This document shows, one piece after another, positions 58,409 through 64,000 of a DNA stretch of 64,000 bases. Position numbers and translations under genes: made by a program. The notes beneath the pieces were generated by a model. That model was not told the DNA's origin. It did not search any database and worked only from the letters and a program-made list of their open reading frames with translations. The stretch lies in the NCBI RefSeq assembly GCF_055900595.2, contig NZ_CM148325.1; one strand, 5' to 3'. Within the stretch, counting starts at the first letter, position 1; each line of letters opens with the position of its first letter.

Positions 58409-59791
58409 TCAACCTGCCACACTCCCCCACACCATTTGCCCTTTATGGAACGTTGCGGTTCTCGGCGAGATACGCGCCACCGCCTCGGCGGAACAGGAGG
58501 CGTCCACCAGCACAAAGCTGGCGTCATCCTGCGCTTTAGGCCAGACGCGCTCGCCTTTTTCGTTGAGCGGCAATACATCACCAGTGGCTAAAAACAGCGA
58601 GCGGGACAAATTCTGTTCGTTAGGACGAATATAGAGCTGCGCGTACAGATTGGCTTTTTCCAGCATGTCGCCCAGGCCGTAAGGCGACCAGTGGTCGATA
58701 ACGCTGTCGGTGCCGGTCATCACTTTTACGCCTTTGTCGTGCAGCTGTTTGAGCGGCATATGCAACGTGCCAATCGGCACCGTCGAGGCGATCGAGATTT
58801 GCTGCGCCGCCATCCGGTTCGCCAGTTCATCTACTTGTTGCTCGTTGAGGGTAGCCAGCGCAAAGGCGTGGCTGATGGTCAGCTTGCCTTTTAGCTGCGG
58901 CGTTTTCTCCACTGTTTCAACCATATAATTGATGGCTGCCACGCCCGCCGGAGTGGTTTCGTGCAGATGAATATCGACGCCTTTGTCGTAGTCCAGCGCA
59001 ATCTGGAACATGGTGTCGAGGGATTTTTCCATCGCGCCATCAACACTGGTCGGGTCCAGCCCGCCGACGTAATGCGCGCCTGCCTGCATTGCTTCACGCA
59101 TCAAGGGTTCCGATTTCGACAGCAGCAAACCGTGCTGCGGGAAGGCGACGATTTCACACTCGAAGCCCGCCTGACGTCGCGCCAGCACCGCCTGCAAATT
59201 TTGCAGATTTTTCAGGCCGGAAACCGGTTCGATATTGCAGTGGCTGCGGGCAATGGTGGTGCCTTTCGACTGCAATAAATCGATCAGTTTTTCTGCCCGC
59301 TCCTGCGTGTAGGGTTGCAGTTCCGGCAGCATTTTTTGCTCGAGTTTGATCATGTCCTGGATAGTGGTGCCTGCCGGGCGATTGAGCGAGCGCCACGGCC
59401 CACCGTAAAAGGTTTTGTCGAGATGAATATGCATGTCGCGGGTGGTGGGCAGCATCAGCTTACCGCCAGCGTCATAGTGCGGCAGCGTGGCGTCCGGATG
59501 CTGCTTGTTCTCGCGCAGCGCGACAATTTTGCCGTCCTGAATCTCCACGGTCTGGCGCGCCGTGCGGGTCTGCACCGCCACGCCATTTTCATAGTCAAAA
59601 CCGGTTTCCAGCAGCACGTTGTCGAGATAGTAGTGCGGGTCAGTGATTTTCATGGTGTTATTCGCGTCGCAGTGGGTGGTGCCAGAGACCTCCGCATGGG
59701 CGAATGGCACAGAGGTACCAAACAGCGCGGCGGCGGTGACCATCTTACCGCTCTGGCTCAAAAACTCACGACGGCTATTGTTTTCTTTCAT
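58409..59791 (-). CDS. yahJ: Amidohydrolase-family deaminase with twin-arginine (Tat) signal peptide
   Basis: 460 aa; N-terminus MKENNSRREFLSQSGKMVTAAALFGTSVPFAHA carries an SRREFL Tat motif. Confidence 0.8.
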   Translation of the reverse strand: MKENNSRREFLSQSGKMVTAAALFGTSVPFAHAEVSGTTHCDANNTMKITDPHYYLDNVLLETGFDYENGVAVQTRTARQTVEIQDGKIVALRENKQHPDATLPHYDAGGKLMLPTTRDMHIHLDKTFYGGPWRSLNRPAGTTIQDMIKLEQKMLPELQPYTQERAEKLIDLLQSKGTTIARSHCNIEPVSGLKNLQNLQAVLARRQAGFECEIVAFPQHGLLLSKSEPLMREAMQAGAHYVGGLDPTSVDGAMEKSLDTMFQIALDYDKGVDIHLHETTPAGVAAINYMVETVEKTPQLKGKLTISHAFALATLNEQQVDELANRMAAQQISIASTVPIGTLHMPLKQLHDKGVKVMTGTDSVIDHWSPYGLGDMLEKANLYAQLYIRPNEQNLSRSLFLATGDVLPLNEKGERVWPKAQDDASFVLVDASCSAEAVARISPRTATFHKGQMVWGSVAG

Positions 59792-59800
59792 CTTACGTCC

Positions 59801-61183: not shown

Positions 61184-62602
61184 TCAGACACCGTAACGTT
61201 CGCACCAGCCAAGAATGGCTTTTTCGAAGCAGGCGAATGGTGGATGCACAATGCCCGCGCCAATCATGCCGACGCCCGCATCTTTATGGGCAATGGCGGT
61301 GTTGATCACCGGCAGAATGCCACTGCTACCCACGCGGGTGATGTCGATTGCCGTCGGCACACCCATAAAACCGAGCAGCGGAATGGTCACGTTGGGGTTT
61401 TCGCCGAGAGTGATTTCGCGCATCTGACGGGAGAAATCGATAGCCTCTTCCACCGTACCGCCCACCAGCGCGACGATTGCAGGCGCGGTCGCCATCGCAA
61501 ATCCACCAATGCCGTAGGTTTCGGTGATGGCGCTGTCGCCAATATCCAGCCCCGAATCTTCCGGCTTATAACCGGCAAACATCGGGCCGATGACCTGTTG
61601 CGCCGGGCCGGTAAACCACTGCCCCGGCAGGCCGCTGACTCGCAGGCCGAACTCGACACCGTTACGCGCCATGGTGGTCACCACGGTGCTGTATTCAATG
61701 CCGTGCGCCGCATCCATCGCTGCTTTACACATTGCCATCCACGTCGGGCCGGAGAAGTAATCGCTGCTGGCGACAAACTCAAACACTTCACGCTGTTGCT
61801 CGACAGAATAGCCCGCCTGAATAATCCCCGGCGTCAGCGCCTGAATCAGCAGCGTCGTCCCGGCGTTATTGCGGTTATGGCATTCATCTCCCATATGCAG
61901 CGCCTGCGCCAGCATTAAGCGCAGATCGATTTCGCCGATAATTTTCATCGCGTCGCGCAGCATGGGCCCCTGCACATCGCGCATCCAGTTGAGGCGGTCA
62001 ATCACGCTCTGATCGTTGGCACCCATACGCAAAATCTTCGCCATCTGCTCGCTCATATTGGTGTAAGCGATGTTGCCGTAGGTTTTGTTTTTCACGATGT
62101 GCATAAACATCGAGGCCGAGGTAACACCCGCCATCGAACCCACGCAGTCGTGCTCGTGGCACGGCGAGAAGGTGATCTCCCCGGAAGCCGCCAGTTCGGC
62201 CGCCTCGTCGAGATCTTTCGCCAGCCCTTCGAACACCAGCGCCCCGGTGACCGCGCCTTTCATAGCGCCGCACATTTTTTCCCAGGTCACTGGTGGCCCG
62301 GCGTGAAGAATGGTTTTCGCCGTCATGCCAGGCACCACGTTAATCGCCTGATCAAAACCAATCAGCACCGGATGCGACTGGATAATGCGTTCCAGCGCCT
62401 GCTGGTTAGCGGCGGCGATTTTGTCTGCCAGCGGCGAATCGGCAATGTTGTCCAGCGCCTGCACCACCTGCATATTGCCCTGCCCCGGCGGCGTCCAGTC
62501 GAGTTGGGTCACTTCTACATGCTGCTTTTTCAGATCATCGCTAAACATGGCGATGCCGACGTTAATAACGTTCAACGGTTGGCTAAACAGTGACGGACTC
62601 AT
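61184..62602 (-). CDS. yahG: DUF1116-family protein
   Basis: 472 aa; synteny with yahI and yahF. Confidence 0.8.
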   Translation of the reverse strand: MSPSLFSQPLNVINVGIAMFSDDLKKQHVEVTQLDWTPPGQGNMQVVQALDNIADSPLADKIAAANQQALERIIQSHPVLIGFDQAINVVPGMTAKTILHAGPPVTWEKMCGAMKGAVTGALVFEGLAKDLDEAAELAASGEITFSPCHEHDCVGSMAGVTSASMFMHIVKNKTYGNIAYTNMSEQMAKILRMGANDQSVIDRLNWMRDVQGPMLRDAMKIIGEIDLRLMLAQALHMGDECHNRNNAGTTLLIQALTPGIIQAGYSVEQQREVFEFVASSDYFSGPTWMAMCKAAMDAAHGIEYSTVVTTMARNGVEFGLRVSGLPGQWFTGPAQQVIGPMFAGYKPEDSGLDIGDSAITETYGIGGFAMATAPAIVALVGGTVEEAIDFSRQMREITLGENPNVTIPLLGFMGVPTAIDITRVGSSGILPVINTAIAHKDAGVGMIGAGIVHPPFACFEKAILGWCERYGV

Positions 62603-64000
62603 CAGGCTTCCTCCCCTTTGCAGATAAATTCACGCGCCAGCAATCCGGTGTTGGTGCTACTGCTCGCCAGAATCACTCCGGCATCAAGCAGCATCTGGCT
62701 TTGTTGTGCTAACGATGGCGTATCGAGATCGGTACCCAGCACATAGGCGAGAATGATCAACTCGCGGCCTTCGGCGGCAGCGATCGCTTTCGCTTCTTTG
62801 ATCGCCTTGATGGTGGAACCGACCGGATCTTCATGCGATCCAAATCCGAGCACAAAATCCATCACGATCACCGCCACTTCTGGATCACGTGCTTCTTCGA
62901 TCAAGCGACTGATGCGATTGGTCGGGTCAATCATTGGATGCGGCTTGCCGTTGGTGAAGTCGTCATCGCCAAAGTCGAGGAAGGTATGTTTGATGCTGCG
63001 GTTGATATCTTGCAGGCGGAATTCAGGATCGGGCTGGATGTTGCTGTAGACATCGCCGTGTTTTTCCATCACTGCGAACATGGTTTCGTCGCACAGTGTG
63101 CCGCCGCAGAACAGGCCACGAATGTATTTCTGCTGCGGTTGCAGGCGAGCGCGCACATCCGCAATCAACGGCTGGTTCAGGGTATGCAGGTCGAGATGTT
63201 CTTGTTTCACGCCGGAGAGCATCACCGCTTTCAGTGCCGCCTCTTTGCTGCCGCGAGCAAACTGTAGCCCCTGCTCATCCACTGGCGTTTCGCCACGACC
63301 GAGGAAGCAGACCACCACCGGCTTGCGGCAGGCGCGTGCGCGTTCCAGCACTTTGCGGGCCACCGCAGGCGCAGGCGGTTTGGAGATAAGTACAATGATT
63401 TCAGTTTGCGGATCGTTTTCCAGCATCCCGATAGCGTCGAGCATCATCAGGCCGCCGATTTTCTCGCTCAGGTCGCGCCCGCCGGTGCCAATCAGTTGCG
63501 AAACGCCGCCGCCAAATTCATGAATACGGACGCTCAGTTCCTGGCTACCGGTGCCGGATGCGCCAACAATACCGATGTTGCCGCGACGCACAGCGTTACC
63601 AAAGCAGAGCGCCGCGCCGTTGATAATCGCCGTGCCGCAGTCTGGCCCCATCATCAGCAGCCCTTTTTCGTGGGCCAGTTGCTTGAGCGCCAGTTCATCT
63701 TCAACTGAGACGTTATCGGAAAACAGCATCACGTTAAGATCGTTTTGCAGCGCCTGACGCGCTTCGCGAGCGGCAAACAGACCGTTGACCGAAATCACTG
63801 CCAGGTTACTTTCCGGGATATGCTTTTTGGCGCTGGCAATAGTGGCGTAACGCGCCTCGTGCGAGCCACTTTGCGCTTTGCTGTTGAACAGTTCTTCAAT
63901 CTCCACCAGCAACTGCTCGTTGTCTGCGCCCGCTTTGCCGTTGATGACAATCATCAGGTCGCCGTTTTTCGCCTGCTCCAGCTCCGGCGTCAGCAGCCCT
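62602..64000 (-). CDS. yahF: FdrA-like acyl-CoA synthetase / CoA-binding protein, C-terminal part; 5' end lies beyond window end
   Basis: Minus-strand frame stays open past 64000 (last 15 codons checked by hand); the track's first in-window Met is 63954; succinyl-CoA-synthetase-alpha-like glycine-rich motifs. Confidence 0.75.
   Translation of the reverse strand, partial: GLLTPELEQAKNGDLMIVINGKAGADNEQLLVEIEELFNSKAQSGSHEARYATIASAKKHIPESNLAVISVNGLFAAREARQALQNDLNVMLFSDNVSVEDELALKQLAHEKGLLMMGPDCGTAIINGAALCFGNAVRRGNIGIVGASGTGSQELSVRIHEFGGGVSQLIGTGGRDLSEKIGGLMMLDAIGMLENDPQTEIIVLISKPPAPAVARKVLERARACRKPVVVCFLGRGETPVDEQGLQFARGSKEAALKAVMLSGVKQEHLDLHTLNQPLIADVRARLQPQQKYIRGLFCGGTLCDETMFAVMEKHGDVYSNIQPDPEFRLQDINRSIKHTFLDFGDDDFTNGKPHPMIDPTNRISRLIEEARDPEVAVIVMDFVLGFGSHEDPVGSTIKAIKEAKAIAAAEGRELIILAYVLGTDLDTPSLAQQSQMLLDAGVILASSSTNTGLLAREFICKGEEA

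Follow-up and report, generated by a model that had tools for sequence, protein, structure and literature searches.

The yah block of Escherichia coli: a candidate carbamoyl-phosphate-forming module encoded with a hydrolase predicted to be Tat-exported

Layout of the yah block

The DNA analysed here, called the window throughout, is a stretch of 64,000 nucleotides from contig NZ_CM148325.1 (RefSeq assembly GCF_055900595.2). This study concerns the genes at its end (58409-64000), namely yahJ, yahI, yahG and the larger part of yahF. The segment 58000-64000 is E. coli chromosome, 100% identical to NZ_CP098223.1 (strain Z0117EC0005) and to seven further genomes, and 4666 of the 5426 complete E. 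coli genomes contain at least 80% of it. The four genes all lie on the minus strand, co-directional and at the place given in an original prediction that had been made from the sequence alone, and are tightly packed (Table 1). Only the first ~50 codons of yahF are missing from the window, the true start of this gene corresponding to position 64149. Beyond the window end lie yahE and yahD, the latter encoding an ankyrin-repeat protein, and then, divergently, yahC and the LysR gene yahB.

The reading frames are closely joined: yahE and yahF overlap by 11 nt, the stop of yahF overlaps the start of yahG (ATGA), and the stop codon of yahI is found 9 nt ahead of the yahJ start, within the yahJ ribosome-binding site. 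Between yahG and yahI there is a spacer of 432 bp, which the original prediction had passed over. It holds a four-copy array of bacterial interspersed mosaic element/repetitive extragenic palindromic (BIME/REP) type, formerly the discarded gene 'yahH', which is matched three times by the Rfam family naRNA4. No minus-strand promoter or terminator consensus was found inside the yah block, and a ribosome profiling study of enterohaemorrhagic E. coli (EHEC) names an 'operon yahDEFGIJ' with footprints across the REP spacer (PMC4765031). The best explanation is that yahD-E-F-G-(BIME)-I-J forms one substrate-inducible operon, with the LysR gene yahB upstream and divergent.

The block from yahD to yahJ is dense and uncharacterised, and the 'y-ome' list of E. 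coli continues to include its genes (PMC11551758), so that the earlier description of the pathway as uncharacterised still holds. In the literature on yah gene function, regulation or the YahB regulon, nothing past gene lists was found.

Table 1. Features of the yah block, in window coordinates.
Feature	Position	Strand	Description
yahJ	58409..59791	-	Open reading frame (ORF), 460 aa; Tat-signal-bearing metal-dependent hydrolase, CodA/AtzC group
yahJ codons 1-33, twin-arginine signal peptide	59693..59791	-	SRREFL, hydrophobic stretch, AHA
yahI	59801..60751	-	316 aa; carbamate kinase paralogue; Pfam AA_kinase
BIME/REP array ('yahH')	60802..61161	.	Tandem repeat, 3.9 copies of 93 bp, in the yahG-yahI spacer
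yahG	61184..62602	-	472 aa; AllG-family subunit, Pfam PF06545
yahF	62602..64000, cut by window end	-	AllF/FdrA-family subunit; full gene 515 aa

Two annotated or predicted reading frames fall on the array. A RefSeq 'hypothetical protein' (60783-61148, minus strand) lies wholly within it, and a 171-aa ORF spans 60748-61263 (minus strand); both are translations of the REP repeats. Footprints on the equivalent REP ORF have been recorded in EHEC (PMC4765031).

Protein families of the block

YahF, YahG and YahE belong to the AllF (FdrA), AllG and AllH families, the three co-encoded subunits of an AllFGH-type transcarbamoylase, yahE being situated just past the window end. YahG, which had been described as a bare DUF1116 protein, matches PF06545 with 298 bits, and this Pfam family is now named AllG (the PDB match of YahG, 3clq, is an uncharacterised protein). 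YahE matches AllH (PF11392), whereas YahF matches CoA_binding and Ligase_CoA in Pfam and FdrA in NCBIfam, the FdrA-like part of its earlier description being thereby borne out. Compared with the K-12 allFGHK products, identity is 39% for YahF/AllF, 45% for YahG/AllG (YlbE), 25% for YahE/AllH and 38% for YahI/AllK (YbcF). The purified AllF-AllG-AllH enzyme was described in 2024 as the oxamate transcarbamoylase that had long been sought, which converts oxalurate and phosphate into carbamoyl phosphate and oxamate and for whose activity AllH is required (PMC11326118); the accompanying carbamate kinase, of the catabolic kind, is AllK/YbcF (PMC11326118, PMC9843812). The yah paralogues go unmentioned in the AllFGH paper (PMC11326118).

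YahI had been proposed as carbamate-kinase-like, and its relation to AllK agrees with this: it scores 648 bits against the NCBIfam model PRK12352, above the cut-off of 266, and its closest PDB chains are all carbamate kinases (1e19, 1b7b). Judged by these family and paralogue relations, YahEFG probably functions as a transcarbamoylase and YahI as the kinase that goes with it, and we hold this with good confidence.

The other part of the earlier description of YahF, that of a CoA-ligase-like protein, did not stand. The BLASTP match between YahF and SucD spans residues 66-231 only and ends ahead of the phosphohistidine (His246) loop, and no GHAGA-like His-loop motif was found in YahF after 'KPVVVCF'. 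Scores against the SucD models were 64-72 bits, with cut-offs of 336-353, and those against succinyl-CoA and acetyl-CoA synthetase models were far beneath the cut-offs. Given that it also lacks this loop and is paralogous to AllF, YahF was rejected as an acyl-CoA ligase, and the 'CoA-ligase' label is misleading.

YahJ matches Pfam Amidohydro_3 and the NCBIfam model PRK06846, an unnamed 'amidohydrolase' subfamily, with 717 bits (cut-off 447). Its closest PDB structures are 6nbo, an uncharacterised Burkholderia protein (template modelling (TM) score 0.88), AtzC (0.85) and CodA (0.76), at identities of 21-28%. Residues H121, H123, K126, Q219, H275, E278, H308 and D362 of YahJ align with catalytic residues of CodA and AtzC, H60, H62 and K65 of AtzC being matched in the alignment. 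Six of these residues (H121, H123, Q219, H275, H308 and D362) do not vary among 18 diverse homologues, and E278, which aligns with E217 of CodA, is invariant in 11 close orthologues. All metal and catalytic residues of CodA are retained, including the substrate-polarising Gln, the Glu and the His, and YahJ carries the residue set of the CodA/AtzC cluster of the amidohydrolase superfamily, which has a mononuclear metal centre. In comparison with AtzC and with CodA, which is accompanied by the CodB permease, YahJ shares the fold, the metal ligands and the catalytic residues but differs by its low identity, by a 33-residue Tat (twin-arginine translocation) signal with a linker, and by other genomic partners.

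Against the cytosine deaminase models PRK07583, PRK09230 and PRK07572, YahJ scored 72-104 bits, below the cut-offs of 403-483. Since it fails these curated cut-offs, YahJ is to be regarded as a relative of the cytosine deaminases and not as one of them; with these scores and an identity of 21% to AtzC, neither a true cytosine deaminase nor AtzC is supported. Members of the CodA cluster act on pyrimidines and s-triazines, in which they hydrolyse an exocyclic C-N bond belonging to an O=C-N=C-N system (PMC12828455). We also rejected a placing of YahJ among the PF07969 metal-dependent bile salt hydrolases reported in 2026, which are ~945 aa long, Sec-exported and assigned to other clusters, and in whose description AtzC is present merely as a reference node. 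The sole other YahJ relative in the window is codA, encoding the cytoplasmic cytosine deaminase (38895-40193, minus strand, 18 kb from yahJ; E = 4e-19).

The N-terminus of YahJ reads MKENNSRREFLSQSGKMVTAAALFGTSVPFAHA, followed by EVSG, exactly as quoted in the original prediction, which had seen in it a twin-arginine signal. The motif SRREFL occupies residues 6-11, a hydrophobic stretch residues 17-30 and a cleavage-type site, AHA, residues 31-33, and the hydrophobic stretch is mild (Kyte-Doolittle maximum 1.6). YahJ therefore shows the sequence features of Tat-exported proteins, namely an S/T-R-R-x-F-L-K-type motif, a hydrophobic stretch and A-x-A. The window has 89 ORFs of 100 aa or longer; apart from YahJ, the Tat motif pattern matched only one of them, a spurious ORF of 108 aa.

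The signal is conserved. RR-x-F-L is invariant in 11 YahJ orthologues from Enterobacterales, Shewanella and Aeromonas, and the linker past the cleavage site is variable. In a wider set of 80 orthologues from 80 genome loci (Proteobacteria, Bacteroidota and Firmicutes), RRxFL is present in 64 and RKxF[LI] in 15, all of them from Bacteroidota, and one protein has no signal. Distant relatives of ~400-415 aa are without the N-terminal extension, and in the AlphaFold model of YahJ residues 1-45 are disordered, the catalytic domain beginning at about residue 50. The conservation across orthologues indicates that the signal is real, old and under selection, and not a chance match. YahJ is very probably periplasmic. 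No signal-like N-termini were seen in YahI, YahG and YahF, which look cytoplasmic, as had been proposed.

The Tat signal of YahJ is already a published prediction and is not new. Tullman-Ercek et al. (2007, JBC 282:8309) are said to have tested the YahJ signal peptide. YahJ is listed among predicted E. coli Tat substrates (PMC3027627), and in a strain of extraintestinal pathogenic E. coli TatP predicts the signal, the function of YahJ is given as 'Unknown', and deletion of yahJ causes a small competitive defect in mice, with a competitive index of 0.70 (PMC7549933). YahJ shares SRRxFL, the weakly hydrophobic core and AxA with the cofactor-binding E. coli Tat substrates CueO, SufI and AmiA/AmiC, and its predicted metal binding, like that of CueO, fits export in the folded state. 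Among the Tat substrates in the literature consulted, no other is a hydrolase of the amidohydrolase superfamily, and no other is encoded together with a cytoplasmic module predicted to yield ATP.

The yah genes in other genomes

We clustered the genes neighbouring yahJ at the 80 genome loci with YahJ orthologues (these and further loci are numbered with the prefix L where needed); metagenome contigs carrying distant homologues were too short to give context. The genes for YahF, YahG and the carbamate kinase are co-oriented with that for YahJ at 25 of the 80 loci, plus two cut by contig ends. Full clusters were found in Citrobacter, Enterobacter, Lelliottia, Kluyvera, Pseudocitrobacter, Serratia oryzae, Buttiauxella, Providencia, Budvicia, Zophobihabitans, a Klebsiella species and E. 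albertii, and Aeromonas shows the same arrangement. An ankyrin gene is present in all 25 clusters, and yahE and a permease gene are present in 21 each. In the Firmicute Neobacillus niacini these genes recur in the order J-E-F-G-permease-ankyrin/TPR-kinase, with a Tat signal on YahJ. That they have been brought together again in a different phylum is good evidence that they are functionally linked, and the conservation of these genes together in more than ten genera and, reordered, in a Firmicute argues for a shared pathway ending at the carbamate kinase. To this extent synteny supports the pairing of the genes into one pathway that had been proposed earlier; the acyl-CoA step included in that proposal falls away.

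The two parts of the cluster also occur apart. LysR-ankyrin-YahJ without the remaining genes was found in Cedecea, Erwinia persicina, Enterobacter sp. Ag1 and Pragia, and a core of ankyrin-AllH-AllF-AllG-permease-kinase without YahJ in Janthinobacterium, Avibacterium, Brevibacillus, Bosea, Photobacterium and Cytobacillus. The core operon of Brevibacillus includes a 152-aa deaminase of cytidine deaminase (CDA) fold and an allantoin-permease-like NCS1 carrier, and the core of Bosea has beside it a PRK05985 relative of YahJ that lacks a signal; the regulators at these loci are of the PucR (purine catabolism) type. The deaminase is thus a recurrent but replaceable partner of the core, which points to an amino- or imino-substituted, nucleobase-like precursor.

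In the 21 permease-bearing clusters, representing about ten non-Escherichia genera, the permease gene lies between yahG and yahI and encodes a polytopic membrane protein of 516 aa. The protein has no sequence match in Pfam, NCBIfam or PDB, and source databases label it 'xanthine permease' or 'AGZA family'. Its model (predicted local distance difference test, pLDDT, 85) shows a 7+7 fold, with two inverted repeats of seven helices as in secondary transporters of NCS2/AzgA/SulP type, that matches SVCT1, UraA, BicA, SLC26Dg, UapA and AZG2 with a probability of 1.0 and TM scores of about 0.5. At the permease position, E. coli has the BIME array; no permease remnant was detectable in the yahG-yahI spacer or elsewhere in the window. 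The presence of a permease between yahG and yahI in other genera, against a BIME array in Escherichia, is a new point of this analysis.

yahC, the gene for a small DUF1097 membrane protein (at 19906-20403 of L001), occurs only in the four permease-less loci, which come from Escherichia, Pseudocitrobacter and Kluyvera (L009, L010, L011 and L016), and in none of the 21 permease-bearing clusters. The four loci are probably of one ancestry, so the pattern would amount to a single event; it offers a lead but does not show that YahC has taken over from the permease.

A second, insertion sequence (IS)-flanked copy of the cluster, carrying the permease gene, is present in 141 of 5426 E. coli genomes, and 105 of its 150 places are on plasmids. 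This copy consists of LysR-ankyrin-AllH-AllF-AllG-516-aa permease-carbamate kinase, is without yahJ and has IS elements after the kinase gene. Examples are L089 6107-14540 (plasmid NZ_CP122493.1, adjoining IncFII RepA) and L090 (chromosome NZ_CP029164.1).

Signal-less orthologues of the ankyrin protein YahD go with both kinds of arrangement: clear examples stand with YahJ alone in Pragia, and with the EFG-permease-kinase core alone in Janthinobacterium, Brevibacillus and Avibacterium. The ankyrin protein of Bosea, Neobacillus and Cytobacillus either forms a fusion with TPR repeats or is longer, at ~390-410 aa. The ankyrin genes beside yahJ in Bacteroidota (L076, L077, L080, L082 and L083) encode lipoprotein signals, e.g., MKNTLLLLPILFLSSC, and that in Microvirga (L044) a Sec-type signal, which places this ankyrin partner outside the cytoplasm; these proteins are weakly similar to YahD and their orthology is uncertain. 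YahD may act as a partner of YahJ, perhaps a co-exported one; no single role explains every arrangement. That a YahD ankyrin accompanies both modules is likewise a new point of the analysis.

Moreover, the yah genes are under strong purifying selection within E. coli. Between the strain analysed here and K-12, synonymous divergence (dS) is about 0.2, and the ratio of nonsynonymous to synonymous divergence (dN/dS) is 0.02-0.07 for yahJ, yahI, yahG, yahF and yahD. yahE is the fastest-evolving gene of the block, with a dN/dS of 0.18-0.3 (0.18 for this strain against K-12). These low ratios indicate that E. coli maintains the yah genes even though the permease is missing. Signs of decay are sporadic: a stop codon interrupts yahF in NBRC 107761, the type strain of E. 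albertii (L011 5595-7166), and several singleton E. coli YahJ variants (P0012, P0014, P0017 and P0034) have in-frame deletions that remove active-site segments, e.g., FPQHG and HLHE.

Pseudocitrobacter (L009, L010) and E. coli share 98-99% protein identity in YahF, YahG, YahI and YahJ, with a dS of about 0.2, and 72% and 58% in YahD and YahE, with a dS above 1. This jump in identity suggests that recombination or transfer has left a breakpoint between yahE and yahF.

A third kind of AllF/AllG/AllH and carbamate kinase cluster was seen in Avibacterium paragallinarum (L092 12752-19721), where its partners are a BiuH-like isochorismatase-family hydrolase, an allophanate-hydrolase C-terminal domain that stands on its own, and an NCS1 permease. 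The BiuH-like hydrolase scored 276 bits against the biuret amidohydrolase model, below the cut-off of 370. The tkt1 island of avian pathogenic E. coli (APEC O1) has the same gene content (PMC3349570).

On the other side of yahJ, towards yahK, the window has an island (53015-58145, minus strand) with an ASCH-domain gene (57702-58112) and a four-gene sugar-type ATP-binding cassette (ABC) transporter whose binding protein (56465-57451) is RhaS/LsrB-like. The island is polymorphic, being present at a coverage of at least 80% in 2211 of 5426 E. coli genomes and absent from K-12; it is not beside yahJ in other genera, and a promoter-like site separates it from yahJ. Its genes were rejected as members of the pathway.

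A possible two-compartment pathway

The nearest known system is the anaerobic allantoin branch of E. coli, in which AllFGH and AllK bring together the same three families and a carbamate kinase in one operon, with presumably the same chemistry, i.e., phosphorolysis of an N-carbamoyl compound followed by ATP formation. The yah genes differ from it in their locus, ~200 kb from the all genes in K-12, in having their own LysR regulator, YahB, instead of AllS/ArcA, and in placing the H-like subunit first. They add the ankyrin protein YahD, the hydrolase YahJ with its Tat signal and, in most genera, the 7+7 permease, and no allantoin enzymes are encoded nearby. The arginine and agmatine deiminase pathways follow a shared logic, in which nitrogen removal gives a ureide, then carbamoyl phosphate and finally ATP, with a co-encoded membrane carrier. 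The oxalurate branch of allantoin fermentation fits this logic as well. The deiminase-pathway proteins are unrelated (a pentein-fold deiminase and a transcarbamoylase of aspartate/ornithine transcarbamoylase (ATC/OTC) fold) and all their steps are cytoplasmic, whereas the yah proposal would put a CodA/AtzC-type metalloenzyme in the periplasm.

We propose that the products of the yah genes degrade a nitrogen-rich compound by a route that spans two compartments. YahJ would fold with its metal in the cytoplasm and be exported by Tat; its target in the periplasm would be a compound with a cytosine-like O=C-N=C-NH(R) system, whose exocyclic C-N bond it would hydrolyse, releasing ammonia or an amine and leaving the compound in its oxo (ureide) form. 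Aminopyrimidines, aminotriazines and acylguanidines, whether cyclic or acyclic, are candidate substrates. The ureide product would then be imported, in most genera by the dedicated secondary transporter of 7+7 fold and in Escherichia, where this permease would have been lost, by another carrier. As paralogy with AllFGH suggests, YahEFG would split the N-carbamoyl compound with phosphate into carbamoyl phosphate and an amine or amide, and YahI, by its family, would use carbamoyl phosphate and ADP to form ATP, NH3 and CO2. The gene order, the families and paralogy, the conserved catalytic and Tat motifs, the synteny and the purifying selection are in hand, and the substrate and the order of steps are what we infer from them. 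To the scheme as a whole, with YahJ acting first, we give about an even chance.

Several observations weigh against it. The permease is absent from Escherichia, and also from Pseudocitrobacter and Kluyvera. YahJ with a regulator alone is the commonest arrangement (45 of the 80 loci), and in Janthinobacterium and Avibacterium the core stands without any deaminase; since YahJ and the core each occur apart, each module can work alone, which makes the step order less certain. A recognisable YahE/AllH is absent from the otherwise complete clusters of Enterobacter and Lelliottia (L019-L022) and Aeromonas (L004), as well as from L092 6418-11521, and YahI falls just below the cut-off of the arcC equivalog TIGR00746 (348.7 against 358.25). 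Moreover, as the operon contains no ring-opening enzyme, heterocyclic products that are stable, for instance uracil or cyanuric acid, could not get as far as YahEFG. The product of YahJ would then have to be an acyclic N-acylurea or to open spontaneously. A substrate of acylguanidine or guanylurea type, which has the O=C-N=C-N pattern and would yield an oxalurate- or biuret-like ureide, is a speculation along these lines.

The steps might also run in the reverse order. Cytoplasmic YahEFG and YahI would act first on an imported ureide, the leftover amine or amide, corresponding to oxamate, would leave the cytoplasm, perhaps in exchange through the 7+7 carrier, and periplasmic YahJ would strip off the remaining nitrogen. 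The core without a deaminase would then have a direct substrate of its own, and the variation of the deaminase partner in fold and compartment among taxa is what would be expected of an add-on step; oxamate, moreover, is a dead-end product of allantoin fermentation that E. coli excretes (PMC3364942). However, the 45 loci in which YahJ stands with its own regulator suggest that it meets an environmental substrate directly; the only recurring neighbours there are these regulators, LysR in Proteobacteria and AraC-type in Bacteroidota, and no substrate clues beyond them were found among the neighbours. In addition, CodA-cluster enzymes act on an amidine-type O=C-N=C-N system and not on simple amides such as oxamate (PMC12828455). 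We regard the reverse order as unlikely.

Two independent functions sharing an operon are, in our judgement, improbable to a similar degree. YahJ, with YahD, would be a periplasmic deaminase for nitrogen scavenging or detoxification, and YahEFG-YahI a second oxalurate-type set, maybe crippled in E. coli by loss of the permease. The separate occurrence of the modules, the permease-less state of Escherichia, the interrupted yahF of the E. albertii type strain, the in-frame YahJ deletions in a few E. coli variants and the mobile second copy without yahJ all favour such a division. Set against it are the co-orientation and translational-coupling distances in 25 loci, the same set reassembled in another order in a Firmicute, the other kinds of deaminase beside the same core elsewhere, and the strong purifying selection on all yah genes within E. 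coli.

A wider version of the two-compartment route is a long shot. In it, the yah genes would encode an unrecognised energy-yielding fermentation, across two compartments, of a cytosine-like or acylguanidine-like compound from the host or environment; YahD would perhaps hitchhike with YahJ through Tat, and uptake in Escherichia would have been rewired after the BIME array took the place of the permease, possibly via YahC. Least probable is an acyl-CoA intermediate formed by YahF as an acyl-CoA synthetase after periplasmic deamination: it has on its side the Pfam matches and the RefSeq name 'acyl-CoA synthetase FdrA', and runs against the missing His loop and the low synthetase scores described above as well as the paralogue AllF, which belongs to a transcarbamoylase that has been purified and works without CoA (PMC11326118).

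For the proposed two-compartment route, E. coli K-12 is probably the wrong organism in which to hunt for the substrate, because the operon's own transporter is absent; Citrobacter, Enterobacter and Providencia carry the full set. Since the identification of AllFGH in 2024, the yah block has a testable reading, that of a second carbamoyl-phosphate-forming, ATP-yielding module together with a deaminase predicted to be exported. If this is true, a nitrogen- and energy-yielding pathway would be added for gut and insect-associated Enterobacterales, and the AllFGH-type transcarbamoylase family would gain a second substrate class, alongside an unusual Tat-exported amidohydrolase.

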